Assembly: GCA_964402475.1 (NCBI GenBank)
Contig: CAYOCZ010000001.1
Coordinates: 1 to 38,918, forward strand
Direction: 5' to 3'
Length of the DNA stretch: 38,918 nt
Origin: an uncultured bacterium
Lineage (GTDB): Bacteria; Hydrothermota; Tepidihabitantia; Tepidihabitantales; Tepidihabitantaceae
Every line of letters starts with the position of its first letter. Positions within the stretch are counted from its first letter, which is position 1. The position numbers and the translations under genes are program-made. Under the pieces are notes generated by a model. The model worked only from the letters and a program-made list of their open reading frames with translations, was not told the origin of the DNA and made no database searches. Positions 9,025 through 38,701 of the stretch are shown piece after piece.

Positions 9025-12000
9025 CTATGACGGGATCGCCTTGAGCGCGGCGTTTATCATCGCCTCGGTCTGCCCGGACTTGAACCCGAGATGGTTGATT
9101 GCGCCCGACGGGCAGATCGCGGCGCAGTTGCCGCAGCCTTTACACAAGGCCTCGTTGATGTGGGATACGGTCCTGTCCGCTCTCTCGACCAGTTCCGGAG
9201 CGTTGTACGGGCATGTGGCCACGCAAAGCCCGCAACCCGCACACACGTTCTCGTCCACCACCGAGGTTGTGGCGCTCGCTTCGTACTTGTCCCTGGAGAG
9301 GATGGTACCTGCCCTTGCTGCCGCGGCCTTTGCCTGGACTATGGCTTCCGGAATGCTCTTGGGCGAATGCGCCAGCCCGGCAAGAAACACGCCTTCGGTC
9401 GCGAAGTCAACCGGCCTCAATTTAACGTGCGCTTCAAGGAAGAAACTGTTTTCGTTCAGCGGGACTTTGAGCATCTGGGAAATGGCCGCGGCATCTTTGT
9501 GCGGGACGATGGCCGGAGCAAGCACGACTAGGTCCGGGCTAACGGTCAGGTCGGTCTCAAGCACCAGATCCCGCGCTTTCACTTTCAGCTTGTCCCCGTC
9601 CTTCTCCACCACCGGCTTCAGTTCCTCGTCATACCTGAGGAATATTATGCCCTTGTCACGCGCACGCTGGTAGTACTCCTCAAGGAATCCATAGGTCCGC
9701 ATATCCCGGTACAGCACGAAGATGTTCACCTTGGGATTGAGTTCCCTGAGCTCAAGAGCATTCTTCACCGCTCCCTGGCAGCACACTCGTGAGCAGTACG
9801 GGTGCTCAGCATCCCTTGACCCGACGCACTGAATCATCACGACGTTCTTGAGCCTGGCCAGCTTGTGGGCCTGTGGGTTCTGCATCCGCTTCTCCAGCTC
9901 GGTCTGGGTGATTACTCTCTCGTCCTCGCCGTACAGGTACTCCATGGGCCTGGATTCCTCGGCGCCGGTCGTAACGATGACAACCCCATGCTCAATCTCG
10001 ATTTGTGCCTTTTGGCTCCCGGCTGTTGGTTCCTGGCCTTTGACCTCAATCGTTGTCTTGTAGTTCCCGATGTAGCCTTTGACATCTTCAATAGCGGCTG
10101 ACTTGTACACCTTGATTCTCGGGTGATTCTCAATCTCCTGGACCAGAGCCTTCAGGTACTGCTGAACATCCTCGCCCTGAATCGTATGGTACAGGTTTCT
10201 CAGGTTCCCGCCCAGTTCACTTTCGCGCTCGACCAGTATGGCGTCGAACCCCTGGTCGGCTAACGACAAGGCGGCCGTCATTCCGGCCAGACCACCGCCG
10301 ATGACCAGTCCTTTCTGAATGACCGGCAGCATCACCGCATACAAGGACTCCAGCAACCCCGCCTTTGCCACCGCCATCTGAACCAGGGTCTTTGCCTTTG
10401 CCGTGGCCTTTTCCGGCACGTGCCCGTGAATCCAGGAACACTGGTCCCGGATGTTCGCCATTTCAAACAGGCACGGGTTCAGGCCGGCTTCGCGCAGGGT
10501 CTCCTGGAACAGCGGCTCGTGGGTTCTGGGCGAGCAGGACGCAACCACGACGCGGTTGAGCCGCTGCTCTTGGATAGTCCTGCTTATTTTCTGCTGGGTA
10601 TCTTGAGAACAGGTAAACAGGTTGTGCTCGCCATAGACGACACCGGGCAGTTTCTTGGCGAATTCAACAACCCCGGGAACGTCCACGACGCTCCCGATAT
10701 TGATGCCGCAGTGACACACGAACACACCGATTCTCGGCGCTTCGCCCCTGACATCCCTTTCCTCGGGGTAGGTTTTGGGTACAATCGCGGTTCCCCGGGC
10801 ATCGGCTACTACGCCTTCGGCCGCGGCCGCGGCGCCCGATGCCTCCATCACGGTCTCCGGTATGTCCTTCGGGCCGCAGGCCGAACCGCATACGAATACC
10901 CCGGGTCGGTTCGTCTCGACCGGTGAGAAAACCGAAGTCTTGAAGAACCGGTACTTGTTCAGCTTTGTGTTCAGCTTATCGGCAAGGACCGCATTGGCCT
11001 TCCTCGGTTCGAGCCCGACCGAAAGCACCACCATGTCGAACTCTTCGCTCAACTGCCGCGGATTGCTCTCCGTGGTGTAATACACAAGCAGGTTCCCGGT
11101 CTCGGGAATCTCCAGGACCTTGCCGACCCGGGACCGAATGAACCGCACCCCATGCTGATCCTTTGCCCGGTTGTAGAACGCGTCGAAATCCTTGCCGTGG
11201 GCCCGGATGTCCATGAAGAATATCGTCGGCTCGACGCCTTTGACGTGCTCCTTGGCGATAATCGCTTCCTTGATCGCGTACATGCAGCAGACCGACGAAC
11301 AGTACTTCCGGTCTTCCATGTCGTCCCGGCTCCCGACGCACTGAATCCAGGCGATTCGCTTCGGTACCTTGCCGTCGTACGGCCGCTGGACGTGGCCGGC
11401 GAAAGGCCCGGAAGCGGCCAGGATGCGCTCGAACTCGATGCTGGTCACGACGTTCCTGCACCTGCCGTACCCGAACTCGTACTTGAGCGAAGGATCGAAC
11501 TTATCCGCGCCGTCCGCGACAATGACCGCGCCGACGTCGAAAGTGAGCTGCTGCTCCTTCTGGTCGAAGTCGATTGCATCCGCTTCGCAGAATTCCTTGC
11601 AAACCTGGCACTCACCGGTCTGCAGGTGGATGCAGTGCTCGGCGTCAATCGTAGCGTAGTTCGGAACCGCCTGCGGGTAGGAGATGTATATCGCCGACCT
11701 CTCCACCAGGCCTTCGTCGAACTCGGACAGAATCGGGACCGGCTTGTTGTGCGTAATCTCCTCGAACTTGATGCACTTGGCCGGACACACGGAAAAGCAC
11801 GCTCCACAGGTCTGGCATACGTCTGACTGGACGTCGAATGCCGGCTGCACCAGCCGCTTATCGCCTCTGCCGGTAAACCCGATTGCTCCTTTCCCCATTC
11901 GGTCGCGGCACATGCGAACGCAGAGCCCGCAGAGCAGACAATCCTCATTCTTCGGCTTGATCCTGGGCTTCCCGACCCCCATCTCCACTGCAAGGCGTTT

Positions 12001-12327
12001 GACCTCTTCGGAATCCGGGCACCGCGCCAGCAGCAGCTCCACCATGATTTTGCGGGTCTGCTTCACACGCGGAGTGTCGGTCTCGACGACAAGCCCGTCC
12101 TGGGCCGGATAGGTGCAGGATGCGTGAATGGATGCCGGGCCGTTGTTTTGGCTCACTTCGACCAGGCAGAGCCGACAGGCACCATAAGCCGGCAGCGCCT
12201 TGTGATAGCACAAGGTGGGGATTTTGATGCCGGCCTTGTTTGCTGCCTGGAGTATCAAGCTGCCCTGTTCGACTTCTACCTGCTTGCCGTTGATTGTCAG
12301 ACTTACCATGCTGTTCTTGTTGCTCAT
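9025..12327 (-). CDS. NuoG/HydA-type N-terminal 2Fe-2S + 4Fe-4S module fused to a tandem HdrA-family flavoprotein; first flavin domain lacks its Rossmann start
   Basis: 1100-aa ORF with an ATGA overlap onto the upstream gene at 12324-12327.
- aa 1-~75 carry a 2Fe-2S pattern C-x10-C-x2-C-x16-C (TLCYHKALPAYGACRLCLVEV...HASC).
- Two 4Fe-4S motifs follow: CLLCGLCVRMC and CQTCGACFSVCP.
- From SEFDEGLVERSAIYISYPQAVPNYATID onward it is collinear with the 1038-aa tandem HdrA (EFERILAASGP, IQCVGSRD, YCSSVCCMYAIKEA, RIGVFVCHCGINIGS).
- The second Rossmann is VIGGGLAGMTAALSLADQG, followed by YCSRVCCQGAVK.
- The C-terminal motifs are CAGCGLCVATCPY / CKGCGNCAAICPSG.
- No GxGxxG occurs before the second domain. 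Confidence 0.9.
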   Translation of the reverse strand: MSNKNSMVSLTINGKQVEVEQGSLILQAANKAGIKIPTLCYHKALPAYGACRLCLVEVSQNNGPASIHASCTYPAQDGLVVETDTPRVKQTRKIMVELLLARCPDSEEVKRLAVEMGVGKPRIKPKNEDCLLCGLCVRMCRDRMGKGAIGFTGRGDKRLVQPAFDVQSDVCQTCGACFSVCPAKCIKFEEITHNKPVPILSEFDEGLVERSAIYISYPQAVPNYATIDAEHCIHLQTGECQVCKEFCEADAIDFDQKEQQLTFDVGAVIVADGADKFDPSLKYEFGYGRCRNVVTSIEFERILAASGPFAGHVQRPYDGKVPKRIAWIQCVGSRDDMEDRKYCSSVCCMYAIKEAIIAKEHVKGVEPTIFFMDIRAHGKDFDAFYNRAKDQHGVRFIRSRVGKVLEIPETGNLLVYYTTESNPRQLSEEFDMVVLSVGLEPRKANAVLADKLNTKLNKYRFFKTSVFSPVETNRPGVFVCGSACGPKDIPETVMEASGAAAAAEGVVADARGTAIVPKTYPEERDVRGEAPRIGVFVCHCGINIGSVVDVPGVVEFAKKLPGVVYGEHNLFTCSQDTQQKISRTIQEQRLNRVVVASCSPRTHEPLFQETLREAGLNPCLFEMANIRDQCSWIHGHVPEKATAKAKTLVQMAVAKAGLLESLYAVMLPVIQKGLVIGGGLAGMTAALSLADQGFDAILVERESELGGNLRNLYHTIQGEDVQQYLKALVQEIENHPRIKVYKSAAIEDVKGYIGNYKTTIEVKGQEPTAGSQKAQIEIEHGVVIVTTGAEESRPMEYLYGEDERVITQTELEKRMQNPQAHKLARLKNVVMIQCVGSRDAEHPYCSRVCCQGAVKNALELRELNPKVNIFVLYRDMRTYGFLEEYYQRARDKGIIFLRYDEELKPVVEKDGDKLKVKARDLVLETDLTVSPDLVVLAPAIVPHKDAAAISQMLKVPLNENSFFLEAHVKLRPVDFATEGVFLAGLAHSPKSIPEAIVQAKAAAARAGTILSRDKYEASATTSVVDENVCAGCGLCVATCPYNAPELVERADRTVSHINEALCKGCGNCAAICPSGAINHLGFKSGQTEAMINAALKAIPS

Positions 12328-12803
12328 CTGTCCTGGCCGTGGTTGGGTGCTTTCCGCATCTCGTCGGTATCCAGCCTGAAGCTGGTTTCGGGGTCCCGAT
12401 GCTCGTATACGAAGTGTGTCTCCGGATGACCGGCAATCAGGGTCGTGAGGGTCTGCTCCATATCGCCAAGAGGCTTGCGGTCGATGTGGCTGTGCCGGAA
12501 GGAAGCCTTCACTCTCGTGCCCTTGCCGACTTCGGAACTGATTTCGATATCACCGCCGGCTTCCCGGGCCGCTTGTGCCAGCAACGGAAGACCCAAGCCT
12601 ACTCTCCGCGTAGTCCTGGTGGTATAGAACGGGTCAAGAACCTTGTCGACGGTCTCCTGGTCCATTCCTCTGCCGTTATCCTCTATCTCAACACTGAGCA
12701 GGTCCTTCTCAACATCCTCGTTGACCCTTATCCTGACTTCTGAGGCCTCTGACTCGACCGAATTCTCGACCACATCAAGAATATGCAAGGACAGATCTTC
12801 CAT
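12324..12803 (-). CDS. stand-alone GHKL (HATPase_c) ATP-binding protein, no DHp/phospho-His domain
   Basis: 159-aa ORF. It has an N-box HILDVVENSVES, G1 DNGRGM and G2 GLGLPL. There is no dimerisation/His-phosphotransfer region. Confidence 0.8.
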   Translation of the reverse strand: MEDLSLHILDVVENSVESEASEVRIRVNEDVEKDLLSVEIEDNGRGMDQETVDKVLDPFYTTRTTRRVGLGLPLLAQAAREAGGDIEISSEVGKGTRVKASFRHSHIDRKPLGDMEQTLTTLIAGHPETHFVYEHRDPETSFRLDTDEMRKAPNHGQDR

Positions 12804-13518
12804 CTTCGTTGTGCAGGGCCTTTCCTATTTCAGTCGCCGTTGCTTCCTTAACGAGGAAAACGGTCGAACTCCTGCCGATATCATCCACGGAATGGGCATC
12901 GGAGGACGCAATCACCGGGAAGCCGAACGCCTGCGGAGAGCCGGGGGGCTCCCTGCCCGGAGAGGCCCTTGCCGATACCTCGACACCGTCCAGAGCCAGT
13001 TCATCGGGGATAAAGCCGAGCTGACCAATAATGCCGAACCGCTCGCGGTCAACGTGGGCCGCAATCGCCACCCCGCCCAGTGAGTGGATCGCGTCCACAA
13101 CCTCGTCAACCGACAACGTGGTTGCCCCGATCAGAAGCCGGTCATTGACGCCGGTCACTTCGTCGTGCTCATCAGCCAGCACCTGCTCTCCGAAAGCCCG
13201 CTCGTCGTTGACCCCGGGCAGATTGTCGTAGATGACGCGCTGGAGCCCGAACAGGCCTTCGTCATCATCAAACAGGACCAGGATGTGTACTTCCTCTTCG
13301 GACGTAACCTCAATCCCGCCGACGACAGCGACTCCTTCCCTGTCCGCCGCCTTTCTCACCGCAACTACGTTTTCTGCAGAGTTGTGGTCGGAAATGCCGA
13401 TTGCATCCAACCCCTGCTGACGCGCCCTGCCTGCTATCCGTCCGGGCAGCATCCCCAGGTCCGCGCAGGGAGAAAGACAGGTGTGGATATGCAGGTCCAT
13501 CCTCAGCTTCTTGAGCAT
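12775..13518 (-). CDS. PHP-domain metal-dependent phosphoesterase
   Basis: Metal-ligand motifs are DLHIHT, ISDHNS, EVHILV, IAAHVDR and ASSDAHS. The track ORF extends to 13581, but that would overlap the upstream DRTGG gene by 53 nt. ATG 13518 (MLKKLRMDLHIH) lies 10 nt after that gene's stop and is preferred. Confidence 0.8.
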   Translation of the reverse strand: MLKKLRMDLHIHTCLSPCADLGMLPGRIAGRARQQGLDAIGISDHNSAENVVAVRKAADREGVAVVGGIEVTSEEEVHILVLFDDDEGLFGLQRVIYDNLPGVNDERAFGEQVLADEHDEVTGVNDRLLIGATTLSVDEVVDAIHSLGGVAIAAHVDRERFGIIGQLGFIPDELALDGVEVSARASPGREPPGSPQAFGFPVIASSDAHSVDDIGRSSTVFLVKEATATEIGKALHNEDGRSVLAYS

Positions 13519-13528
13519 CCCGCCTGCG

Positions 13529-13876
13529 TCACTTCGTGTTCCCGCGGATGCCGATTTCGCAGAGTCTTCCCGCAATCTCAAAGGTCTGCAGGCCGGTCAG
13601 CATGACCGGGATGTCCTCCTGCTCCGCTTTTGCCAGGACCTCCTGCTCCGCTTTCCTTCCGTTCACGATGATGATTCCGGAAAGCTCCTTCAGGGAAGCC
13701 ACGGCAATGATGTTCTGATGGACCTGCAGCGTGACCCAGACATTGCCCTCCCGGGAATTGGCCATCACGTCGCTGAGCAGGTCGCTCGCATAACCGCCGC
13801 TTACTTCTCTGTCGAGGCCGCACCGCGGGGTGGCCGACTCCAGATGGAGTCTTTCCACTATGTCCTTGAGTTTCAT
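13529..13876 (-). CDS. DRTGG-domain protein (short stand-alone form)
   Basis: 115-aa ORF. GGYASDLLSDVMANSREGNVWVTLQVHQNIIAVASL...IPVMLT matches the short DRTGG-family proteins commonly annotated in NuoEF/HydABC-type operons. It has an ATGA overlap with the upstream gene at 13873-13876. Confidence 0.7.
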   Translation of the reverse strand: MKLKDIVERLHLESATPRCGLDREVSGGYASDLLSDVMANSREGNVWVTLQVHQNIIAVASLKELSGIIIVNGRKAEQEVLAKAEQEDIPVMLTGLQTFEIAGRLCEIGIRGNTK

Positions 13877-14832
13877 GATGCCTCGTTCTGCCGCCGAACG
13901 TCCTTGTCAGCCTCGTTTCCGTTAAGGTAGATTACGACCTCGAGATTCGTTCCCTTGCCGATTTGCGAGGCCAGACTCATTTCGTCCGCGCAGTTCCTGA
14001 TATTGCACAAGCCCATTCCGGCCCCGAATCCCATCTCCCGTATCCAGTCAGGGGCAGTAGAAAAACTGGGCTGCATCGCCTGCTCGGTGTCGGGGATTCC
14101 GGGTCCGTTGTCCGATGCGCCGATCGTAATCCGGTCCGAGCATACCGAGACCGTGAGTCTGCCTCCATCGGTGAACACTATGATGTTGATTTCGGCCTCA
14201 AACGCGACAATCGCTATGCGGCGGACTATTTCGGGTCGGATACCGAGCCGATGCAGCGTTTTCTTGAGCCTGCTTGCCGATTGCCCGGCACGGTCGAAAT
14301 CCTTACCGGCTATTTCGTACTTGAGGACCAGGTTCGTTTTGTCCGCGACGATGTCCTCGAAGATGTGACTGGCCCGATAGTGGTGAATCTCCTCCTCGTG
14401 GTACTCGACCTCCAGCTTTCTCAGCAGGCACTTGATGATGTTGCCCTTGGTAATAATCCCGACCAGCTTCTGTCCGTTCCGTTCGATCACCGGGAAGCGG
14501 CCAAACCCGTACTGCTCGAATTTCCTGACGGCATGAACCAGCGGTTCGTCGGCATACAGCGTTTCCGCATCCCTCGTCATCCTGCGCTCGATGATAACGT
14601 CCATTTCTCCCTGGGCCAGACACCTGATGTAGTCCTCGATGCTGATAAGCCCGACGACTCTGCCTTCATCTACTACCGGAACCCCGGAAATGTGCTTCTC
14701 ACGCATCACATCTCTCAGGTTATGAATCGCCTGCTTCGGACTCACCGTGACGACGTCGGCGATCATCGCGTCCCTGACCCGGAGCTCATAAGTCAGCTCC
14801 TGAATCTTAGTGAAGTTCCTATCTTTGGTCAT
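13873..14832 (-). CDS. CBS-pair + GHKL ATPase protein (anti-sigma/serine-kinase-like)
   Basis: 319-aa ORF. It has two CBS motifs (VRDAMIADVVTVSP...HISGVPVVDEGRVVGLISIEDY; ...FGRFPVIERNGQKLVGIITKGNI). The C-terminal GHKL fold shows DNGPGIP and GFGAGMGL. Confidence 0.8.
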   Translation of the reverse strand: MTKDRNFTKIQELTYELRVRDAMIADVVTVSPKQAIHNLRDVMREKHISGVPVVDEGRVVGLISIEDYIRCLAQGEMDVIIERRMTRDAETLYADEPLVHAVRKFEQYGFGRFPVIERNGQKLVGIITKGNIIKCLLRKLEVEYHEEEIHHYRASHIFEDIVADKTNLVLKYEIAGKDFDRAGQSASRLKKTLHRLGIRPEIVRRIAIVAFEAEINIIVFTDGGRLTVSVCSDRITIGASDNGPGIPDTEQAMQPSFSTAPDWIREMGFGAGMGLCNIRNCADEMSLASQIGKGTNLEVVIYLNGNEADKDVRRQNEAS

Positions 14833-15196
14833 TCCTCTTGCTGATGTCCAGATAGCCCAGACCCGTGAGCCCGTTCTTGAACAGCCTGCCGCAACTCACG
14901 AACATCGGCAGGCGGGTAGTCATCAGGACTATGCCCTTCTGCTCGGCCAGCTTGAGCGTCTTTTCGTCCGGCTCCTTGCCGCGGATGAAGCAAATCGCGT
15001 GGATGTCGGCCACGTTGGCCGTGTAGATGACCTGACGGTTCGCCAGTCCTGTCAGGAGGATTGCGTCGGGTTTGGCGAAGGCCAGGACGTCGCTCATCAG
15101 GTCGGAAGCGCAGCCGATTTTCACTTCGGTCTTGAGACTGTCCTGACCGACCAGGACTTCCGCCTCGATGGTCTTGCTGATTTCTTCGAGCGTCAT
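14819..15196 (-). CDS. DRTGG-domain protein (second copy)
   Basis: 125-aa ORF, paralogous to 13529..13876 (CASDLMSDVLAFAKPDAILLTGLANRQVIYTANV...GIVLMTT). It begins 4 nt after the NuoF-like stop. Confidence 0.7.
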   Translation of the reverse strand: MTLEEISKTIEAEVLVGQDSLKTEVKIGCASDLMSDVLAFAKPDAILLTGLANRQVIYTANVADIHAICFIRGKEPDEKTLKLAEQKGIVLMTTRLPMFVSCGRLFKNGLTGLGYLDISKRNDQR

Positions 15197-15200
15197 CCTG

Positions 15201-17060: not shown

Positions 17061-17199
17061 TCCAATTCCGATTGTCGAATGGCGACTGCCGAGTAACCGA
17101 AGGGAACGTGCCGTCCGACGGCACAACGACATGATGCCTCAGCGGTCTCACATGCTGCGTTTTGCCTTCTGCAATCCGACCTCTGCCTTCTGTTTTTCC

Positions 17200-17586
17200 T
17201 CACGGTACTCTTTCACTCCCGAAAGCCAGCGCGTATTCCTTGACGATCTCCCCTGAAAGGACGTGCCTGACGAATATTTCCTTCGCCTTGTCCGGAGTCA
17301 CGTCCACGTATTTCACCGGCGGCTGGCCCTGGACTTCGACCGTTATCATCGGTTCCCGGCTGCACAGGCCGGCGCAGCTCGAAGGAATCAGAATGACGTC
17401 CTTGACGTCCCGTTCTTCTATCTCAGTCATCAACGCGCTCATCACGGCCCGCGCTCCGGCTGCTATCCCGCAGGTGCCCATATGAACAATGACTTTTGCC
17501 CGGCTGGTCCCTTCACGGAGAGAAATCGTCCTCTTCACCTTCTCGGTTATTCTCGCCAGGTCTTCAGGCCTCAACTTCGGCATCAC
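17200..17586 (-). CDS. thioredoxin-like [2Fe-2S] ferredoxin (HydD-like small subunit)
   Basis: 128-aa [17 protein letters not shown] ... [11 protein letters not shown] is the pattern of thioredoxin-like 2Fe-2S ferredoxins found with NuoEF-type modules. Confidence 0.8.
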
Positions 17587-18517: not shown

Positions 18518-18590
18518 CGTTCAGCGTTCATCTTATTCCAGCTATCTGCGTTCACCTGCGGTTCCGCTTTCGGAGCTCTAGTTTCTCCTC

Positions 18591-19700: not shown

Positions 19701-19728
19701 ACTTCTGTTCGCACCGGCTGCCGGTAGT

Positions 19729-31899: not shown

Positions 31900-32043
31900 T
31901 TTGCCTCCCTTTCGCCGGATTCAGGTGCCGCTGCAGTCTGTCACTCGGTGTTGTGCCATCCGCCAGCACTCTCCGTTCCGTCCCCATCTCGATGCTTGTC
32001 TGTGTCCGTCCCCGGCTTCTTCGCTCCGGTCGCAACTCGGGGC

Positions 32044-32469
32044 TCACAAGAAAACCTCCGTCCTTGCCGGGCTTGGCCCCGCCTTCACTATCGTCTCGGA
32101 GAACCCCGTGACGACCTCTTGGAATCGCCCGCCCTCGGACGCGGACACCCACGAAAGCCTGACCCGGTTTGTCTCAAGGCCCAGTTCGTTGAATACCCGC
32201 TGGGTAAGCGCAAACCGCCTTCGGGTATAGTAGTTGCCGGTCTGGTAATGACAGTCTCCCGGATGACAGCCGGCGACCAGTATCCCGTCCGCTCCGTTGA
32301 GAAACGCCTTGAGCACGAAGAGCGGGTCTACCCGGCTCGAACACATCACCCGGATTGCGACCATCGTCGCCGGCATCTTCATCCTCGATACCCCGGCAAG
32401 GTCGGCCCCGGCGTAGGAACACCAGTTGCAGAGGAAACCGACTATGGTGGGCTGGAAATCTCCTGCCAT
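32044..32469 (-). CDS. MvhD/FlxD-like [2Fe-2S] protein (copy 3)
   Basis: 141-aa ORF with LCNWCSYAGADLAG, VMCSSRV and GCHPGDCHY. It starts 1 nt after the upstream stop. Confidence 0.88.
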   Translation of the reverse strand: MAGDFQPTIVGFLCNWCSYAGADLAGVSRMKMPATMVAIRVMCSSRVDPLFVLKAFLNGADGILVAGCHPGDCHYQTGNYYTRRRFALTQRVFNELGLETNRVRLSWVSASEGGRFQEVVTGFSETIVKAGPSPARTEVFL

Positions 32470-32470: not shown

Positions 32471-33565
32471 CTATGCCCCGACTTCCTTCAGCTCCTCCGC
32501 CTCGAATGTACTGGTCGGGATCTTCTCCTCGGCGTCTCTTCCCGCCAGGTAGTCGAACATCCCCTGGACGCTCCCGGCAAGCCTGGTGAAGATTGACGCA
32601 ACCGGGATATTGACCGGACACGCATCCGAACACATGCCGCAGCCGACGCAGCTCAGGCTGACGTGGAGCATCCGGCCGACGTGGTAGTAGATTGTCCCGA
32701 CCGGCAGCCTCAAACCGCCACGCTGGTCCAGCTCGTCCGACACCGTCCCCGGCTTCTGCTCGGCGTCGGCCGACTCGAAGTGACAGGTATTGCAGTAGCA
32801 CACCGGGCAGGCATTGCTGCACGCATGACAGTTGATGCACCGCCCGAACACCGAAATCAACCCGGATATCCCGAGCGCGTCGGGCGAGAACCGGTCAAGC
32901 ACTGCCGGCCGATGTCCGGCCCGTTCCTCGCCAACCCGCTCAAGCATCCCGGTATCCGGCTCGCTCTCGCTTGACGGACTCAGGCCTTCCAGGAATCGTT
33001 CGCCTTTCTCGGTCTCCGCCAGCATGTCGGTCGTCTGCCTCGTATCCTTCCCGACCAGCGCAACCGTCACGTCCGCACCCTTCGGCACGAATTCCGCGCA
33101 TACCCGGCACGTATCGCGCAGCCCGTCCCAGGTCACGCCGGACTCAAGAGCATCGCGGTGCTTCTCAAGCACCGGGTCAATCCCGCCGAGTACCGACCTC
33201 GTCGGCACCACCCCGCCGCAGGTGCAACTGATGAGCAGCAGGTTGTCCAGCCGCGCCTGTCCCAGCTTGACGAGTTCGAACAGCGCTCGCAGCTCACACG
33301 GCCTCAAGACGACCGCGGTCGGCTCCGGCACCGGCTCCAGCGTTGTCAGCCGGGAAACCATCCTGCCGCCGTTCACCGGCATCAGCGGCACCGTTGGCGC
33401 TGCCCGGCCGAGAAGCTGACGGTCGGCAATCAGTGTGTAGGCGAACCCCCCCGGGTTTACCTCCGCGAGCACAAAAGCCCCGCGTATCCGTTCCTGCTCC
33501 ATCAGGAAACCCAAAAGCTCTCTCACCGCTTCGTCCGGTGTCCCGGGAACCTGGAACCGCTTCAT
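32471..33565 (-). CDS. AsrA/HydB/Flx-type 4Fe-4S dicluster protein (tandem paralog 2)
   Basis: 364-aa ORF with VLRPCELRALFELVK, CINCHACSNACPVCYCNTC and CVGCGMCSDACPVNIPV. It has an ATGA overlap at 33562-33565. Confidence 0.75.
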   Translation of the reverse strand: MKRFQVPGTPDEAVRELLGFLMEQERIRGAFVLAEVNPGGFAYTLIADRQLLGRAAPTVPLMPVNGGRMVSRLTTLEPVPEPTAVVLRPCELRALFELVKLGQARLDNLLLISCTCGGVVPTRSVLGGIDPVLEKHRDALESGVTWDGLRDTCRVCAEFVPKGADVTVALVGKDTRQTTDMLAETEKGERFLEGLSPSSESEPDTGMLERVGEERAGHRPAVLDRFSPDALGISGLISVFGRCINCHACSNACPVCYCNTCHFESADAEQKPGTVSDELDQRGGLRLPVGTIYYHVGRMLHVSLSCVGCGMCSDACPVNIPVASIFTRLAGSVQGMFDYLAGRDAEEKIPTSTFEAEELKEVGA

Positions 33566-34749
33566 TCCACCTTTCCTTCTGAATCCTGGTCTTTGCTCTT
33601 CCCGCTCTGTGTCTCTGTGGTTCCCGGGGCAGAAATTCCTCCCGCGTCCTCGAACGCGTGCAGCTCATCCTCCTTGAAGGTCGTCATCGGCATCGCTTCC
33701 TCCCGGCTGCGGCCAGGCGCGTAGCCGAACTGCTCCTGGACCCCGGCGCCGACGAACGCGAATACCCGGCTGACCGGCACGTCCATCGGACACGCGTCTT
33801 CGCACGCCCCGCACGCGACACACGACAGCGCCATGTGGTACATCCGGCCGACATGGAACTGCATCATGTCACCCGGAAAACGGATGCCGCCCCTGTGCTG
33901 TGCACGGGCGAAATAGTCCTCCGCTCTCAGCCTCACACTGTCGCCCGAGTCAAAGAAGCACTGCCGGCAGTAGCATATCGGGCAGACCCTCATGCAGTTG
34001 TGGCAGTTGACGCAGTCCGCGAACAGCTTCTCAAATCCGTCAACCCCGGCGGCCCTGCCCTTCATCTCCTGGAAGGCGCTGTCCCTGGCCCCGGTGCGGA
34101 CCCTGGCTTCTTTTTCCACCCCGGCTTCCCAGTCCGAAATACCATCGTCGCCCGCGACCCCGGCGTCGGCCAGCAGCCGCTCGCCCCGGTCGCTTCGGTG
34201 GACAACAGCAACCTCGCCGGGCTTACCCCTGAGTAAACCGATATGAACATCGGACGCGACCTCCTGAAGGCTGAAACCCACGCAGCTCTTGCAGTCCGGT
34301 CGCAGGCCGTCGTCTTGCTTTCCCTGCAGAATTTCCTCGAAGCGACGGTCAAACTCCTCCGGGTTCCCCAAGTAGTCCCGCGTCGGAAACGCACCCGGAC
34401 AGTCGATCGTCAACAGCAGCACGTCCTCAAGGTCCACTTGGTTCCGCTTGAACAGCTCGATGGCCGCCCGTGCCTCACACGGCCGCAGCACACACAGGAT
34501 TCCGGGCAAACCACCTCTGCCGCGGCCCATGCTCTGAAGCGCCCGCGCACCCTGCACCGGCATCACCGGCGCCAGCGGGGTTGCCGCCTCAAGCAGCTTT
34601 GGGTCCCGGATCAAGAGGTAAGCGAACGACTCCTTCGATGGGATGCGGCTCGGCACCATGACCGCGTCCGTGGCCTTCAGAAGCAACGCCAGCACCGACC
34701 GCAGCGTGTCGTTCACGCTGCCGTCGACCGGAATTCTCTTGCCCTTCAT
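33562..34749 (-). CDS. AsrA/HydB/Flx-type 4Fe-4S dicluster protein (tandem paralog 1)
   Basis: It has VLRPCEARAAIELFK, CVNCHNCMRVCPICYCRQC and CVACGACEDACPMDVPV. The start is taken at ATG 34749 (MKGKRIP), forming an ATGA overlap with the upstream stop. The track ORF to 34836 lies inside the upstream gene. Confidence 0.75.
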   Translation of the reverse strand: MKGKRIPVDGSVNDTLRSVLALLLKATDAVMVPSRIPSKESFAYLLIRDPKLLEAATPLAPVMPVQGARALQSMGRGRGGLPGILCVLRPCEARAAIELFKRNQVDLEDVLLLTIDCPGAFPTRDYLGNPEEFDRRFEEILQGKQDDGLRPDCKSCVGFSLQEVASDVHIGLLRGKPGEVAVVHRSDRGERLLADAGVAGDDGISDWEAGVEKEARVRTGARDSAFQEMKGRAAGVDGFEKLFADCVNCHNCMRVCPICYCRQCFFDSGDSVRLRAEDYFARAQHRGGIRFPGDMMQFHVGRMYHMALSCVACGACEDACPMDVPVSRVFAFVGAGVQEQFGYAPGRSREEAMPMTTFKEDELHAFEDAGGISAPGTTETQSGKSKDQDSEGKVE

Positions 34750-36371
34750 CTGAGTATCTGCGTTACTTCCTGGTCCATCTGCCTGGTCGTAAACTGGCGG
34801 TGTTGGGCCGCGCCTGACGGACAAGCAGCCGCGCAATTTCCGCAGCCGCGACAGAGCACTTCGTTCACAACCGCGATGTGTCGGTCCTCATTCAGCGTCG
34901 CTGCCCCGTAGGCACAGGCGGCGACACAGATCCCACAGCCCACGCAAAGGGCTTCCGCCACTTCGGACGTCCTGGTTTCCAGCCTCAGCCGTCGGCCCGG
35001 AACCAGCGCCGAAAGCACCTTGCCTGCCGCGGCCCCGGCCTGGGCCGTCGCATCGAGCGCGCCGGCAGGGCCACGGCAGCCGCCGACTACGAACACACCC
35101 TCGGTCACCGTTCCGACCGGGTTCAGCACCGGGTGCTCTGACTGGAAGAAGCCGTGCTCGTCCAAAGGGATGTTGAACATCCGTGCGAATTCCGCGTTCG
35201 CCGGACCAGCCGCCACGCCCGCAGACAGAACTACCGCGTCGGCAACCACGCTGCCGCTCGAGCCGTCCTCCTGCCGGTACCTGACGACCAGTCCCGGGCC
35301 CTCCCTGGCCACATCGATATCCCGGAACCTGACGAAACGCACGCCCGTCTTTGCCGTTTCGTGGTAGAACCGGTCGTGCTCCGTGCCCGGCAGGCACAGG
35401 TCGCGGTAGAACTCGGTAACCTCGGTTTCAGCCGAGGCTTCCTTCACGCGACGGGCGACTCTCATCGCTTCGACACAGCAGGTCCCGGAGCAGTATCCCA
35501 GCTTCTCCCGACCCACACAGTGAATCACCGCGACCGACTTCGGATGCCCGTCCGAAGCGTCGCTTGCGGCCTTCTCAAACTCGCGGACCGTGCTCACACC
35601 CTCGAGCTCACGATACCCGTAACCGGCGAGCCCGGTCGGGTCGAACGCCACTGCCCCGGTTGCGAGCACCACTGAACCGGCCTTGAGTTGAACTTCGTTG
35701 CCTTCTCGGGTTTCCAGGTGCGCGACGAAACTTCCGAAGAACCCAAGCAGCTCCCTGATTTTGCAGTGCTCGTATACCTCTATCAGCGGGTTGTTCCTCA
35801 GCGCGTCAACCCGCGCAGCCATCCATTCCCGGTCCCGCCGCGTTCCGCCCGGTTCGTCCTTCTCCAGAAGAAAGACCTTCCTGCCCTTCTGCGCGATCCT
35901 CAGGGCTGCCTCAATCCCGGCCGTTCCCCCGCCGATAACGATGGTATCCGGGCTGCACTCGATTTCTTTCTGCTCGAGCGGCCAGTGATACCTGACCCGG
36001 CCGATCGCTGCCCGGATGAAACGCAGAGCCTTGCTCGTCGCCTGTTCCTTGTCCGGCGTGGCCCAGGCGCACTGCTCGCGGATGTTCACCATCTGGAACA
36101 CGTGGGCGTTGAGCCCGGCGTTCGCGACTACCTGCTCGAACGTGGCCTGGTGCTGCTTGGGCGAACAGGCCGCTATGACCACACGCTCGTACCCGCGCTC
36201 TTTGATGCTCTCGGTCACGAACCGCTTGCCGTCCTCGGAACAAAGCAGCTTGAAACGCTCTATCCCGGCGACCTTGGCGTCCTTCTTTATTTCGGCTGTT
36301 ATCCGGTCCAGGTCAATTGCCTCGGCGATGTTCGGCCCGCACTCGCACAGGTAGAGACCGATTTTACCCAT
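34746..36371 (-). CDS. HdrA-family flavoprotein, B-type (QmoB-like without MvhD tail): N-terminal Fe-S domain + FAD domain without ferredoxin insert + C-terminal ferredoxin
   Basis: 541-aa ORF with KIGLYLCECGPNIAE, IVIGGGTAGIEAALRIAQKG, GYCSGTCCVEAMR and CVGCGICVAACAY / CRGCGNCAAACPSG. It is collinear with the second half of the 1038-aa protein and has an 8-nt overlap with the upstream gene. Confidence 0.88.
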   Translation of the reverse strand: MGKIGLYLCECGPNIAEAIDLDRITAEIKKDAKVAGIERFKLLCSEDGKRFVTESIKERGYERVVIAACSPKQHQATFEQVVANAGLNAHVFQMVNIREQCAWATPDKEQATSKALRFIRAAIGRVRYHWPLEQKEIECSPDTIVIGGGTAGIEAALRIAQKGRKVFLLEKDEPGGTRRDREWMAARVDALRNNPLIEVYEHCKIRELLGFFGSFVAHLETREGNEVQLKAGSVVLATGAVAFDPTGLAGYGYRELEGVSTVREFEKAASDASDGHPKSVAVIHCVGREKLGYCSGTCCVEAMRVARRVKEASAETEVTEFYRDLCLPGTEHDRFYHETAKTGVRFVRFRDIDVAREGPGLVVRYRQEDGSSGSVVADAVVLSAGVAAGPANAEFARMFNIPLDEHGFFQSEHPVLNPVGTVTEGVFVVGGCRGPAGALDATAQAGAAAGKVLSALVPGRRLRLETRTSEVAEALCVGCGICVAACAYGAATLNEDRHIAVVNEVLCRGCGNCAAACPSGAAQHRQFTTRQMDQEVTQILR

Positions 36372-37683
36372 CCCCGCTCCCTGCCGGCCTTTCTTGTGTT
36401 TCTTCGCCCGGTCCTGTCTCTGTGTCTTTGTGATTCATCTTCAGGACGCCGGCTGCGGCCGCCTCAGCCTGAATTACTACCGTCTGCATGTCTTTCGGGC
36501 CGCTGTTGCACCCGGCGATGAACACCCCGGGCCGGGTCGCGGTTGCCGGTTCGCTCCCGGCGGTGCGGAAAAACCCGAAGCCGTCCGTCTCTATACCCAG
36601 CAACTCAGCCAGGGCCGCGGCACCAGAACCCGGCTCGATGGCCGGAGCCAACACCGCCATGTCTACTTCGTCCGACTCACTCTTCCCGTTCGCCTGGAAT
36701 TCTATCCTTACTCCTGAGCCGTTTGCCGAAATCCCGGGCACAGCCTTGGTCCGCACCAGCTTGACGCCCTTCTCGAGCGCGGTCTCCAGGAACCGCTGGC
36801 TGTCCTTCCCCGGAACTGAAACCTCCTGGATGAATTCGTGCACCTCGACCCCTTCCAGCTTGTCGAACGCATAGCGGGCGAACTTGGCAAGGTAGCGGCA
36901 GCAGACCTGGGAGCAGTACCCCTTCTCCCTGCGGCCCGCGCAGTGAATGAGCGCGACCGACTTCGGTTTCTTGCCGTCCCGTGTCCGGATTTCGCCCTCG
37001 GTCGGCCCGTTCGAAGCCCGCAGCCGTTCGAACTCAAACGCGTTGTATACGTTCTCAAGCCTATCCGGCAGACCGGCGCCGCTCAGCCGGTATCCGGTGG
37101 CAACGACAATTGCCCCGACCTTCACCTCCCGCTCCTCGTCCTTGTCCTCGTAGTTGATCGCGTCGAACATGCACGCGTCCCGGCACGCGGTACACTCCTC
37201 GCCCTTCGACCGCAGACACTCACCCATCGCGATCGCCGGCGCGTTGGGCAGGGCCCCGGCACAGGCGACGTAGATGGCCTTGCGCTGCGACAGCCCTTCC
37301 TCGAACTCGTTGGCAGCGGTGACCGGACACGGCTCGAAACAGGCCGCGCACCCGATGCAGTTCTCCAGGCTGACGTACCGGGCGCGGCGCAAGAGCGTCA
37401 CGCCGAACGCGCCCGCCTCGCCGCGGACGTCCTTCACCTCGGTCAGGGTGAGCAACTCGACATTCTGGTTCTCGATGACGTCCGACTGCTTCGGGGCGAT
37501 CATGCAGGTGGCGCACTCCAGATTCGGAAACACCTCCTCCGACTTGATGACGTTGCCGCCGAAGTAGGCCTGCCGCTCCACGAGGTACACCTTCCGGCCC
37601 GCGTTCGCCAGCACCAGGCTGGCTTCGACGCCGGCCAGCCCGGCACCGATGACAAGGACGTCGGTCGTCTGGTCGGCCATCAC
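36364..37683 (-). CDS. HdrA-family flavoprotein, A-type (QmoA-like): FAD domain with ferredoxin insert only
   Basis: 439-aa ORF from GTG 37683; ATG 37680 is equally possible. It has VLVIGAGLAGVEASLVLANAG, VFPNLECATCMIAPK, CIGCAACFEPCPV / CTACRDACMFDAI and GYCSQVCCRYLAK. It is collinear with the first half of the 1038-aa protein. Confidence 0.88.
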   Translation of the reverse strand: MMADQTTDVLVIGAGLAGVEASLVLANAGRKVYLVERQAYFGGNVIKSEEVFPNLECATCMIAPKQSDVIENQNVELLTLTEVKDVRGEAGAFGVTLLRRARYVSLENCIGCAACFEPCPVTAANEFEEGLSQRKAIYVACAGALPNAPAIAMGECLRSKGEECTACRDACMFDAINYEDKDEEREVKVGAIVVATGYRLSGAGLPDRLENVYNAFEFERLRASNGPTEGEIRTRDGKKPKSVALIHCAGRREKGYCSQVCCRYLAKFARYAFDKLEGVEVHEFIQEVSVPGKDSQRFLETALEKGVKLVRTKAVPGISANGSGVRIEFQANGKSESDEVDMAVLAPAIEPGSGAAALAELLGIETDGFGFFRTAGSEPATATRPGVFIAGCNSGPKDMQTVVIQAEAAAAGVLKMNHKDTETGPGEETQERPAGSGDG

Positions 37684-38108
37684 TCGATGAACGGCCTGGT
37701 TCGCAGCGGATTCGGCCCCAGCCCGGCGATGTGACTGCTGAACTCCTTCGTCACCTCGGAATAGCGCTTGCCCTCCGAAGCCGAAATCCAGGACAGCCGA
37801 AACCGCGCCGGGTCAAGCTCCAGCACGTCCAGTATCCCCCGCAAGAGCGCGAACCTCCGCCGGGCATTGTAGTTGCCGGTCTGGTAGTGGCAGTCGCCCG
37901 GATGGCACCCGGCGACCAGCACACCGTCAGCGCCGCGCAGGTAAGCGGCGACCAGTAGCACCGGGTTGACTCGACTCGAACACATCACCCGGATTGTCGT
38001 CAGGGTTGCAGGTATCTCCAGCTTGTTGCTGCCTGCCTGGTCCGCCGCCGCGTAGGAACACCAGTTGCACAGAAAGCCGACAATGTTCGGCTCGAAGCTG
38101 CCAGCCAC
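37680..38108 (-). CDS. MvhD/FlxD-like [2Fe-2S] protein (copy 4)
   Basis: It has LCNWCSYAAADQAG, VMCSSRV and GCHPGDCHY. The track ORF starts at 38192, inside tusA. GTG 38108 gives an N-terminus (V)AGSFEPNIVGFLCNW that matches MAGDFQPTIVGFLCNW of copy 3, and lies 8 nt after the tusA stop. Confidence 0.85.
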   Translation of the reverse strand: MAGSFEPNIVGFLCNWCSYAAADQAGSNKLEIPATLTTIRVMCSSRVNPVLLVAAYLRGADGVLVAGCHPGDCHYQTGNYNARRRFALLRGILDVLELDPARFRLSWISASEGKRYSEVTKEFSSHIAGLGPNPLRTRPFIE

Positions 38109-38116: not shown

Positions 38117-38338
38117 CTAGAACTGGACCTGGGCGTTGAACTTTCCTCCCTCGTCCCGACAGAAAAGCAGGGTTTTGCCCGTCTTCTTGCACCAGTTCTC
38201 GATGTCGCGCGGGAACGAGGGGCAGTCGGCCAGCACCTCAAGCACGTCCCCGGCCTGCAGGTTCGGCGCCTCAATCGCCATCTTCAAGATCGGCTGGGGG
38301 CACTTCAGCCCCAGCACATCGAGCGTCTTGTTTGCCAT
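38117..38338 (-). CDS. tusA: TusA/SirA-family sulfur carrier protein
   Basis: 73-aa ORF. LDVLGLKCPQPILKMA carries the CPxP active-site Cys motif of TusA. Confidence 0.85.
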   Translation of the reverse strand: MANKTLDVLGLKCPQPILKMAIEAPNLQAGDVLEVLADCPSFPRDIENWCKKTGKTLLFCRDEGGKFNAQVQF

Positions 38339-38347
38339 GGCTCCTCC

Positions 38348-38701
38348 TCAGAACGAAAACGTCGTCTGTGCGCCCTGGATCTCGGTCAGGAACGTGGTTG
38401 CTCCGACCAGCTCGATATCATTGCGCAGGTCTTCCTTCTTCACGTCGCATGCCTCGAGTCCCAGCTCACAGAAATACAACTTGCCGCCGAGGGTCTTTAC
38501 CCCGTTCCACATCTCGATAAGGTCGGGATAACCCTTTTTCTTCGTACCCTCAATCACACCCGGTTTAAGCGCCGCAACCGCGCCCGGGGTGAAGAACACA
38601 TACACCGTGTCTCCGCTCGCCGCCGCGGACGAACCCAGCACGAACGTCGGAAACAGGCTCTTCGGTTCGGATCCGTTGCAGACAATGGCCACTTTGCCCA
38701 T
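38348..38701 (-). CDS. DsrE/DsrF-like family protein (COG2210-type)
   Basis: 117-aa ORF with KVAIVCNGSE..., FFTPGAV, and a conserved-position Cys in YFCELGLEA. A strong RBS, AAAGGAGGTAACG, lies directly before the ATG at 38701. Confidence 0.75.
   Translation of the reverse strand: MGKVAIVCNGSEPKSLFPTFVLGSSAAASGDTVYVFFTPGAVAALKPGVIEGTKKKGYPDLIEMWNGVKTLGGKLYFCELGLEACDVKKEDLRNDIELVGATTFLTEIQGAQTTFSF

Follow-up and report, generated by a model that had tools for sequence, protein, structure and literature searches.

A minus-strand array of 29 genes in an uncultured bacterium probably joins four separable HdrA/HdrL-centred redox modules head to tail

HdrA modules are abundant outside methanogens, and their partners and acceptors are mostly undefined. 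Here, we describe a 29-gene array of HdrA-family and associated genes in a 38,918-nt stretch of DNA from an uncultured bacterium of the Hydrothermota lineage (GenBank assembly GCA_964402475.1, contig CAYOCZ010000001.1; this whole stretch is called the window). The closest described systems are MvhADG-HdrABC of methanogens (PDB 5ODC), FlxABCD-HdrABC of Desulfovibrio, QmoABC of sulfate reducers, BamDEFGHI of Geobacter metallireducens, ElpABC-HdrABC of Methanothermobacter marburgensis (PDB 8RVU; PMC12350162), NiFe-HydABCSL of Acetomicrobium mobile (PDB 7T2R), and sHdr-LbpA. In solved complexes, MvhD or ElpC connects the flavin adenine dinucleotide (FAD) of HdrA with the donor arm (PMC12350162). 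BamDEFGHI is the sole described system that combines Bfu (NuoEFG-like) subunits with a two-domain HdrA (BamE) and MvhD (BamF) (PMC9304861), and HdrL, Hdr/Flox, and HdrABC/HdrL have been described in Desulfobacterium autotrophicum and Syntrophobacter fumaroxidans (PMC2702500; PMC5947623). We consider it probable that the present array is lineage-specific and strings together, head to tail, four soluble redox modules that are centred on HdrA/HdrL and separable in evolution, designated A (g01 to g08), M (g09 to g13), B (g14 to g19), and C (g20 to g29).

The window is nearly all of a 39,262-bp source contig (ENA ERZ27245787 k141_419578). Genes were called from a six-frame listing of open reading frames (ORFs), their translations, and Pfam and NCBIfam scans, with starts backed by homologue alignments. 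Positions 9025-38701 hold 29 protein-coding genes, all on the minus strand, from g01 at 38701 to g29 at 9025, and every long family-supported ORF in this range lies on that strand. The same 29-gene set is present in the stored gene calls of k141_419578 and of the identical DNA in JGI assemblies; gene number 29 of the count is that of TusA (38117-38338). An earlier note on this DNA had placed every gene from 38701 down to 9025 on the minus strand, which ORFs, families, and stored gene calls all bear out. The largest plus-strand ORF within the array (23868-26519, 883 amino acids [aa]) lies opposite hdrL, had no match in a Pfam scan, and is read as a GC-rich antisense artefact.

The genes are tightly packed. 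From g01 to g29, the first 14 of the 28 junctions measure 9, 8, -1, -8, -4, -4, 1, 144, -4, 12, 10, -4, -4, and -4 nt and the last 14 measure 1, -4, -11, 11, -11, 73, -20, 139, 4, -14, -4, 10, -29, and -4 nt, negative values being overlaps. Twenty-five junctions thus overlap or are no longer than 12 nt, a tighter limit than the 28 nt that the earlier note had allowed for the same number. The other three are gaps of more than 70 nt at exactly the coordinates claimed before, and module boundaries adjoin two of them. They are listed here with the promoter-like site upstream of the array:

31900-32043, minus strand: spacer of 144 nt at the boundary of modules A and M
18518-18590: gap of 73 nt
17061-17199: gap of 139 nt
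38821-38848, minus strand: sigma-70-like promoter, TTGACA-16-TATCAT, matching the consensus at 11/12 positions, ~120 nt upstream of dsrE

The promoter is known by its consensus match alone. Consensus scans for internal promoters and terminators were no richer than in shuffled sequence and gave none in the three long gaps, which likewise had no Rfam match and folding z-scores of -0.75, -0.15, and -0.03. A riboswitch or other structured RNA in these gaps was therefore dropped as a candidate. Tight packing, the strong promoter-like site at 38848-38821, and gaps free of terminators and structured RNA are compatible with one long transcript, and a single transcript for the whole array is plausible. 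The grouping of 29 co-directional, tightly packed genes with a single theme is far beyond chance.

The content was checked by Pfam, NCBIfam, and PDB searches. It includes six HdrA-family genes and four MvhD genes (PF02662, E = 1e-47 to 1e-55), as previously counted, and seven HdrA-type flavin domains spread over four units. The earlier note had listed these seven domains plus a detached fragment; the seven stand, and the fragment is not an additional domain but the missing N terminus of g29. Its gene count holds as well, while its content list had omitted the five regulator genes g24 to g28. Neither the CCG (HdrB) domain PF02754 nor a GCV_H domain was found in any of the 29 products by Pfam scans, and a crude hydropathy scan revealed no obvious transmembrane segment and no membrane anchor of the QmoC or HdrE type among them. 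No window protein matched the AOR family, and no apr genes occur in the window, in line with the earlier statement that it lacks an AOR/BamB-like or adenosine phosphosulfate reductase partner.

Module A begins with two small sulfur-carrier genes and contains an HdrL that is divided between two genes:

38348-38701, minus strand: g01, DsrE-like sulfur carrier, 117 aa (PF13686, PF02635)
38117-38338, minus strand: g02, TusA, 73 aa (NF001423)
37680-38108, minus strand: g03, MvhD-1, 142 aa (PF02662, E = 2.7e-47)
36364-37680, minus strand: g04, HdrA half of the QmoA type, 438 aa, aligning with g14 residues 7-454
34746-36371, minus strand: g05, HdrA half of the QmoB type, 541 aa, aligning with g14 residues 455-1036
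33562-34749, minus strand: g06, FdhB/ElpB-like Fe-S protein, 395 aa (PDB FdhB chains, E = 4e-24 to 1e-18)
32471-33565, minus strand: g07, FdhB/ElpB-like Fe-S protein, 364 aa (profile against FdhB 9T1S_M, E = 5e-53)
32044-32469, minus strand: g08, MvhD-2, 141 aa (PF02662, E = 2e-51), starting 1 nt past g07

Cys78 of DsrE is invariant across 14 homologues, and in TusA both C13, the cysteine of the GLKCPQP motif, and C50 are invariant across 17. By their alignment to g14, g04 and g05 together make up one HdrL, with g05 contributing an N-terminal Cys domain, an FAD domain, and a C-terminal 2x[4Fe-4S] domain. The pair, like HdrL itself, has the QmoA-plus-QmoB domain layout of QmoABC; in contrast to that system, there is no membrane QmoC and no aprAB in the window, and MvhD is separate rather than fused to QmoB. 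DsrE and TusA head Hdr-type genes here as in sHdr-LbpA, and YeeE and rhodaneses occur in related loci. Unlike sHdr-LbpA, the array has no HdrB1/B2, no HdrC1/C2 pair, and no LbpA, and it carries multiple donor modules and MvhD connectors.

The paralogues g06 and g07 (34% identity) matched no NCBIfam family. A g07 profile built from 30 homologues matches methanogen FdhB 9T1S_M over its full length, and the AlphaFold2 model of g07 (pLDDT of 84.8) has ElpB 8RVU_E and FdhB 7BKB_E as its best folds (template modelling [TM] scores of 0.69 to 0.71), compared with a TM score of 0.49 for sulfhydrogenase beta. Fifteen cysteines of g07 are invariant. The earlier note had assigned g06, g07, g16, and g17 to the AsrA/HydB type. 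This holds for g17; for the other three, which resemble FdhB/ElpB, the assignment was dropped because no NCBIfam model matched and FdhB/ElpB was best by profile and fold. A CPxC[YH]C motif can be read in all four proteins. ElpB/FdhB in solved complexes carries FAD and four [4Fe-4S] clusters, and archaeal homologues of ElpB/FrhB-like proteins use F420. Compared with ElpABC-HdrABC, g07 shares the ElpB/FdhB fold, g06 and g16 match FdhB by sequence, and the FdhB/ElpB-like genes share modules with MvhD genes just as ElpB occurs with ElpC. The array differs in having no ElpA, no HdrBC, two ElpB-like paralogues in a row, and a bacterial host.

Module M combines a canonical HdrA with an Mvh-like hydrogenase:

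29965-31899, minus strand: g09, canonical full-length HdrA, 644 aa (HdrA2 model, 688 bits, residues 4-642)
29567-29968, minus strand: g10, MvhD-3, 133 aa (PF02662, E = 5e-54), overlapping g09 by 4 nt
28574-29554, minus strand: g11, [NiFe] hydrogenase small subunit of the MvhG/VhuG type, 326 aa (PF01058; VhuG, 198 bits)
27100-28563, minus strand: g12, [NiFe] hydrogenase large subunit, group 3, Mvh-like, 487 aa (VhuA, 393 bits)
26636-27103, minus strand: g13, hydrogenase maturation endopeptidase, 155 aa (TIGR00072, 84 bits)

All four HdrA domain motifs are present in g09. In g12, the L1 motif RICGVC (RxCGxC) and the L2 motif DPCLACATH (DPCxxCxxH) are intact and a 25-residue C-terminal extension is of the kind removed by a protease. 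The [NiFe] hydrogenase with its protease named in the earlier note is present, with its MvhG and MvhA motifs intact and the maturation protease gene next to it. As judged from its sequence, g12 clearly belongs to group 3, possibly to subgroup 3c; VhuG and VhuA are the top NCBIfam models for g11 and g12, with scores under the curated cut-offs. Like MvhADG-HdrABC, the module has full-length HdrA, MvhD, MvhG, MvhA, and the protease; HdrA, MvhD, and MvhA strongly match solved subunits. It differs in that the array has no HdrB, the sole HdrC lies in another module (B), and g12 is slightly nearer to the HydL of the A. mobile NiFe-Bfu enzyme (7T2R_D, 416 bits) than to MvhA (5ODC_F, 387 bits). As the host is bacterial, CoM-S-S-CoB is an unlikely substrate.

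Module B pairs a fused HdrL with Flx-type genes:

23523-26639, minus strand: g14, HdrL, 1038 aa, a QmoA-like half fused to a QmoB-like half
23008-23526, minus strand: g15, MvhD-4/FlxD, 172 aa (PF02662, E = 5e-55)
22044-23006, minus strand: g16, Fe-S protein in the FlxC position, 320 aa (FdhB 7BKB_E, E = 1e-29; PF04432 weak)
21028-22047, minus strand: g17, FlxB/HydB/AsrA-type Fe-S protein, 339 aa (PF17179, E = 4e-34)
20208-21038, minus strand: g18, FlxA/HydG/AsrB-type NAD(P)H:FAD protein with [2Fe-2S], 276 aa (PF00970, PF00175, PF10418)
19729-20196, minus strand: g19, HdrC-like 2x[4Fe-4S] protein, 155 aa (TIGR03290, 93 bits)

The relatives of g14 in GTDB genomes number more than 588. The resemblance of g16 is to the C-terminal half of FdhB; g17 matches the ShyB (181 bits), HydB, and AsrA models, as well as sulfhydrogenase beta (9NEZ_B, E = 1.5e-41); g18 is also matched by the HydG and AsrB models; and g19 corresponds to the soluble N-terminal region of QmoC only (78 bits). 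FlxA, FlxB, an Fe-S protein in the FlxC position, FlxD, an HdrA-type protein, and HdrC are thus shared with FlxABCD-HdrABC. In module B, however, the order is reversed (hdrL-flxDCBA-hdrC), a two-domain HdrL replaces HdrA, and HdrB is missing, with TusA following HdrC in Cloacimonadota-type loci.

Module C consists of an HdrL that is split by Bfu parts, and it includes a regulator cassette:

18591-19739, minus strand: g20, FrhB-family flavo-Fe-S protein, 382 aa (PF04422, PF04432; 8RJA_E and 8RIU_B, E = 1e-41), overlapping g19 by 11 nt
17564-18517, minus strand: g21, N-terminal third of an HdrA flavin domain fused to NuoE/BfuC, 317 aa
17200-17583, minus strand: g22, thioredoxin-like [2Fe-2S] protein, 127 aa (weak PF01257; fdxn_Clost model)
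15201-17060, minus strand: g23, BfuB/HydB-type NuoF, 619 aa (7T2R_B, 824 bits, residues 1-594)
14819-15196, minus strand: g24, DRTGG (Pfam)
13873-14832, minus strand: g25, CBS and HATPase (Pfam)
13529-13876, minus strand: g26, DRTGG (Pfam)
12775-13518, minus strand: g27, PHP (Pfam)
12324-12803, minus strand: g28, HATPase (Pfam)
9025-12327, minus strand: g29, NuoG/BfuA N terminus fused to the rest of HdrL, 1,100 aa

The alignment of g14 with g21 over residues 6-135 and with g29 over residues 89-1035, at 51% identity each, implies that g21 and g29 together make up one HdrL; residues 25-157 of g21 are the missing N terminus of the first flavin domain of g29. These alignments place the opening of the HdrL within the ferredoxin domain that is inserted in its first flavin domain. 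At the position occupied here by NuoE to NuoG, the HdrL of locus L017 has a GltD/NfnB-like NAD(P)H insert (Fer4_20 and Pyr_redox_2), and the module C HdrL is a single protein of ~1,500 aa in L005, L013, L017, L039, L058, L077, and L081. Among cultured bacteria, module B together with a GltD-type module C is found in, for example, Desulfotruncus alcoholivorax DSM 16058 and Desulfofundulus thermosubterraneus DSM 16057. The fusion in g21 is common: FAD_oxidored and 2Fe-2S_thioredx occur together in 119 of the 120 best homologue clusters (58 to 99% identical), which, where named, are nearly always called "NuoE" or "NAD(P)H-dependent oxidoreductase subunit E."

The earlier note had recognised a NuoE/NuoF set in these genes, and its type can be refined to the bifurcating Bfu (HydABC) type. 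The best PDB matches of the g21 NuoE domain are HydC chains. The top nine PDB matches of g23, which has an N-terminal [2Fe-2S] domain and a C-terminal 2x[4Fe-4S] domain, are without exception Bfu-family B subunits, and respiratory NuoF aligns with its core only (131-530, ~410 bits). The N terminus of g29 has a [2Fe-2S] domain and two CxxCxxCxxxC motifs, with the 247-aa BfuA-like chain 9MQX_A as its best PDB match; an HxxxCxxCxxxxxC motif was not seen there when the sequence was read by eye. NiFe-HydABCSL provides the best PDB match for g23 and g12 and strong matches for the g21 NuoE domain and the g29 N terminus. The array differs from it in that only the N-terminal part of BfuA is present, fused to HdrL, and in that the hydrogenase genes lie beside HdrA and MvhD, not beside the Bfu genes.

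A Bfu module (g21, g23, and g29) is also what the array shares with BamDEFGHI, together with a two-domain, BamE-like HdrA and MvhD. A gene resembling BamD adjoins the array:

7634-8833, plus strand: HdrD/TfrB-like protein with 2x[4Fe-4S] and two CCG domains, 399 aa (PF02754, E = 7e-29; TfrB, 162 bits)

This gene is convergent with g29, keeps its position in JGI contigs of the same population, and encodes the sole CCG thiol:disulfide catalytic domain in the window; whether it is part of the array system is uncertain. Unlike in BamDEFGHI, BfuC and BfuA are fused into split HdrL polypeptides and five regulator genes are embedded. Module C might, by tandem bifurcation, supply electrons far below the ferredoxin potential to a BamB/AOR-type reductase encoded elsewhere, given that Bfu with HdrA is otherwise described only for BamDEFGHI (PMC9304861), that g14 and g29 have the BamE-like two-domain architecture, and that an HdrD-like gene lies alongside. 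We hold this to be extremely unlikely, as neither BamB/AOR nor BamC (the tungsten AOR-type reductase BamBC) occurs in the window or in the module C contexts examined, where the partners seen are sulfur or thiol proteins, hydrogenase, or none.

The array is therefore not a member of the described systems: the absence of HdrB separates it from MvhADG-HdrABC and FlxABCD-HdrABC, the absence of QmoC and apr from QmoABC, that of BamBC from BamB-I, and that of HdrB1/B2 and LbpA from sHdr. It nonetheless has parts in common with each of them and probably shares their mechanism. The searched literature contains no description of a Bfu-split HdrL, of bacterial ElpB-like arms, or of the DRTGG/CBS/PHP/HATPase cassette found here, and no paper that joins Cloacimonadota, heterodisulfide reductase, and MvhD. 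A related Hdr/TusA/sulfurtransferase cluster of "Ca. Stygibacter" (Cloacimonadota) is mentioned in passing by Williams et al. 2021 (PMC8542988), who interpreted it as serving sulfur oxidation.

A union of so many parts could arise from a chimeric contig, a possibility that the earlier note had wanted excluded. DNA that is 99.8 to 100% identical occurs in four other datasets, namely, three assemblies of other samples (JGI 3300022553, JGI 3300025824, and ENA ERZ23498689) and one Logan run (SRR6481098). Their contigs jointly cover the window from 34366 down to 5921, including every junction from g06 to beyond g29. Among the parts covered are g08|g09, g13|g14, and the whole stretch that leads from g14 through g29 to the convergent neighbour. 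A step in GC content at ~32 kb (63% in g01 to g08 versus 57 to 59% elsewhere) recurs in L003, a related locus in a metagenome-assembled genome (MAG), at 63.6% versus 59 to 61%, and is a property of the genes. The identical contigs over the junctions and the shared GC step rule out a chimera, and the contig is contiguous.

Contigs from JGI 3300022553, JGI 3300025824, and Logan SRR6481098 end within mvhA, at ~27,700-27,710. The break point is bridged by the window contig and by ERZ23498689 scaffold_8331, and no repeat was found in the sequence at this position. Identity to the same relatives differs little between the two halves of MvhA (87 to 89% for the N-terminal half and 81 to 85% for the C-terminal half). 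The shared break point is possibly a strain-level fork.

To place the array among related loci, all window proteins were compared with 80 GTDB loci for which HdrL was the anchor and 80 metagenome loci for which HdrA was, and ~170 related loci were considered overall. The closest, L003 (in a MAG labelled Desulfobacterales; 82 to 88% nucleotide identity), has collinear modules A, B, and C without g09 to g13, g22, and g24 to g28. A block consisting of DsrE, TusA, MvhD, HdrL (split or fused), two ElpB-like genes, MvhD, HdrL, FlxDCBA, and HdrC recurs in MAGs labelled Cloacimonadota, Armatimonadota, Eisenbacteria, Delongbacteria, and "bacterium." Modules B and C are found in L002 (a WOR-3 MAG), and Desulfotomaculum-type loci keep module B, with an HdrB-like gene after HdrC. 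The MvhA 90%-identity cluster includes PIP14045.1 from a "Ca. Stahlbacteria" MAG, alongside the Desulfobacterales label of L003 and the WOR-3 label of L002; one of the MAG bin labels may be wrong.

The hydrogenase module varies in its presence and surroundings. L082 has g08, HdrA, MvhD, and HdrL, with the hydrogenase genes missing. In L084 to L086, the regulator cassette precedes the genes for HdrA, MvhD, MvhG, MvhA, and the protease; module A is convergent with these and, in L085 and L086, complete down to TusA and DsrE. In L088, the cassette lies downstream of HdrA-MvhDGA. The 676-nt mvhD-2/hdrA spacer of L082 holds a short MvhD-like remnant (L082:1110-1268; 43% identity to g10 residues 80-132), which may be a rearrangement scar at the module A/M boundary.

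Module C keeps a constant nine-gene order in the unrelated contigs L162 to L165 and L176, and in L176 it stands alone. The FrhB-family gene lies directly upstream of it in L164 and L165 too, and the position of g22 is matched in L002, L162 to L165, L176, and L177. The order of the g24 to g28 cassette (12324-15196) is kept within the module in L002, L162 to L165, and L176. The cassette moves as a unit, lying either inside the Bfu-HdrL module or next to HdrA-MvhDGA (L084 to L088), and may serve as a dedicated sensor of redox state or nucleotides. Between the thioredoxin-like gene and nuoF, the spacer (17061-17199 in the window) measures ~280 to 300 nt in L002 and L164 and 25 nt in L177. In other lineages, MvhD directly follows the g29 homologue.

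Hydrogenase, NuoEF, and HdrA also meet in L177 (ENA ERZ27247117 k141_452219, 7667-20175), where ~12 kb hold HdrC, HdrB, a toxin-antitoxin pair, HdrA'-NuoE, the thioredoxin-like protein, NuoF, NuoG'-HdrL, MvhD, MvhG, and MvhA. This combination is hence not unique to the window. L177 unites Bfu, HdrL, Mvh, and HdrBC on a far smaller scale and would be better suited to reconstitution.

The earlier note knew of no locus uniting Mvh, Flx, Qmo-like, and Bam/NuoEF-like parts and had proposed a search for the gene order in other genomes. That search shows that the A+B(+C) order recurs and the four-module set does not: the novelty of the full set stands, and that of the union of Mvh, NuoEF, and HdrA falls with L177. 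No compared locus from another organism has MvhGA and FlxCBA within 10 kb, and all four modules together were found in no other organism among the ~170 related loci, nor in the searched literature. The full stack is, so far, specific to this population. As judged from gene order, the A+B(+C) sub-combination is widespread and the locus is an extreme member of a recurring supercluster, not a one-off.

These arrangements also bear on how the products would be assembled. One operon could encode one giant, megadalton, multi-donor complex of all 24 redox proteins that draws on H2, NAD(P)H, and NADH at once, and the 25 tight junctions, the one promoter-like site upstream, the gaps free of terminator-like sites or structured RNA, and the megadalton supercomplexes that HdrA systems are known to build (PMC12350162) would all suit such a machine. 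We regard it as unlikely. Close relatives have the modules separate, reordered, and reoriented, and some of them lack the hydrogenase; module boundaries adjoin two of the three long gaps; and each HdrA/HdrL unit has its own donor arm, with its own MvhD in modules A, M, and B, which gives them the look of independent complexes. The "one apparent operon" of the earlier note and its idea of one very large complex thus give way to modules that are separable and occur in other orders and orientations (L003, L082, L084 to L086, L162 to L165, and L176). By analogy with solved complexes, the modules would probably form several complexes that share ferredoxin and sulfur-carrier pools rather than one machine.

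The sulfur-carrier genes proved to be the most conserved partners of module A, not the minor accessories that the earlier note had made of TusA and DsrE. Of the parts of the array, they point most directly to the end reaction. Of the 10 loci with enough flanking sequence, all have TusA upstream of module A and 8 have DsrE there. In Cloacimonadota-type loci, the genes after HdrC encode another TusA, a YeeE-type "sulphur transport" protein (PF04143), several rhodaneses, and a porin. In L164, module C directly follows the FrhB-family gene, with TusA, YeeE, and rhodaneses further upstream. In L162, module C lies next to GcvH-like, HdrC/HdrB-like, and OsmC genes: on ENA ERZ23498859 scaffold_1 (344-10004), it is preceded by a GcvH-like protein, a response-regulator/GcvH/HdrC-like fusion, a CCG HdrB-like protein, and OsmC. 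The NuoF of L162 is fused to a GltD-like domain (1,063 aa). The gene content of L162 hints at a lipoyl-protein disulfide as the acceptor in that lineage.

By analogy with the characterised systems, the array most likely serves soluble flavin-based electron bifurcation or confurcation, with H2, NAD(P)H, and NADH coupled to ferredoxin and to an acceptor based on sulfur. This rests on the homology of MvhD, HdrA, MvhA, ElpB/FdhB, and BfuB/BfuC to subunits of solved bifurcating complexes. Each module would pass mid-potential electron pairs to an HdrA-type bifurcating FAD, through the [2Fe-2S] protein MvhD in modules A, M, and B and through the fused BfuA clusters in module C. The donors would be H2 (MvhAG), NAD(P)H (FlxABC), NADH with ferredoxin (Bfu), and an undefined hydride carrier at the ElpB/FrhB-like flavoproteins. 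The low-potential branch would lead to ferredoxin and the high-potential branch through HdrC-like clusters to the sulfur-based acceptor, and all steps would be reversible (confurcation). In module C, a Bfu site would be fused to an HdrA site and the two would act in tandem; Schut et al. (PMC9304861) have proposed the same tandem for BamGHI and BamE. Carrier-bound sulfane sulfur is favoured as the acceptor because HdrB is absent and because TusA, DsrE, YeeE, and rhodaneses are constant companions. The acceptor would thus most probably be sulfane sulfur or a persulfide carried by TusA/DsrE; a disulfide, reached via the adjacent HdrD-like protein, is the alternative.

Several points weigh against this proposal. 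An HdrB/CCG subunit is lacking from the array and was not detected in A+B loci from other phyla either; the mechanism is drawn from homologous complexes, and the site of acceptor reduction has no candidate among the 29 products. The substrate of the ElpB/FrhB-like proteins is in doubt, the archaeal homologues being F420 enzymes. Both g12 and the Bfu subunits match A. mobile NiFe-HydABCSL best, which leaves room for another wiring. TusA and DsrE could have a different role, and in L176 module C stands without a visible third-substrate partner.

Some of these points would fit a sulfur-free redox balancer, an HdrA-based bifurcating hydrogenase/transhydrogenase hub that couples H2 or NADPH with ferredoxin and NAD+, like HydABC with Nfn. 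In such a hub, the high-potential branch would end at a FlxA/FrhB NAD(P)+ site and TusA/DsrE would be incidental. The absence of HdrB from the array, the three nucleotide-type sites (FlxA, BfuB, and, in relatives, the GltD-like insert), the 11-nt overlap of the HdrC gene g19 with the FrhB-like gene g20, and the existence of module C alone with only NADH and ferredoxin sites are in its favour. To us, this is an unlikely reading, since TusA/DsrE head module A in essentially all flanked loci of several phyla, the core is flanked by sulfur import genes, and HdrB/CCG or GcvH-like partners adjoin module C in L162 and L177.

If sulfur is indeed involved, its oxidation state could change in the other direction. 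An sHdr-like pathway would oxidise sulfane sulfur delivered by YeeE/TusA/DsrE and pass the electrons to NAD(P)+ and ferredoxin. This is how the cluster of "Ca. Stygibacter" was read (Williams et al. 2021, PMC8542988), and TusA/DsrE/rhodanese cascades do serve sHdr (PMC11094781). With the HdrB1/B2 CCG subunit and the LbpA/GcvH-like protein absent from the array, and with donor modules (hydrogenase, FlxA, and Bfu) dominating it in a way that fits electron input, sulfur oxidation appears very unlikely.

Returning to sulfur as the electron acceptor, we tentatively put forward, as a rather doubtful generalisation, that the DsrE-to-HdrC core, with or without the Bfu-split HdrL, represents a class of HdrB-independent, cytoplasmic, energy-conserving sulfane-sulfur reductases of several uncultured phyla, including Cloacimonadota and WOR-3/Stahlbacteria. 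A TusA/DsrE persulfide would replace the heterodisulfide as the high-potential acceptor, and the Bfu and HdrA sites of module C would be fused in one polypeptide pair and act in tandem.

The flanks of the array hold further features:

38873-38891 and 38900-38918, minus strand: two direct repeats, TATGACA(C/T)T(T/A)TCGCTGTGG, 27 nt apart and just upstream of the -35 hexamer
8852-8878, no strand assigned: GC-rich hairpin between the convergent genes
3504-5450 and 1053-3047, minus strand: tandem paralogous CitMHS-type permeases, each with an N-terminal phosphotransferase system EIIA-2 domain
3073-3486, minus strand: universal stress protein gene between the two permeases

The repeats are a candidate operator for some regulator, and the hairpin is a possible two-way terminator. 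Beyond the window, 287 nt upstream of dsrE, the end of the source contig (L172:3-461) carries a divergent 153-aa gene with a transposase-type helix-turn-helix (HTH_23/HTH_Tnp_1); an insertion sequence element may border the cluster and explain the contig break.

The locus is thus an unusually complete new combination of known HdrA-based parts, not a new kind of system. It points to a modular grammar with one HdrA/HdrL unit per donor arm and an MvhD connector in three of four modules, four such units being stacked here. The widespread fusions HdrA'-NuoE and NuoG'-HdrL, which databases call just "NuoE," would connect a Bfu-type NADH/ferredoxin site directly to the ferredoxin domain inserted in HdrA. 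Bacterial ElpB/FdhB-like donor arms lie beside HdrA/MvhD genes, an arm that was characterised in methanogens only in 2025. The steady link to TusA, DsrE, YeeE, and rhodaneses without HdrB leads to a testable sulfur-carrier acceptor. If this reading is true, the annotation of energy metabolism in Cloacimonadota, WOR-3, and related MAGs would change, and defined gene sets would be available for heterologous reconstitution.

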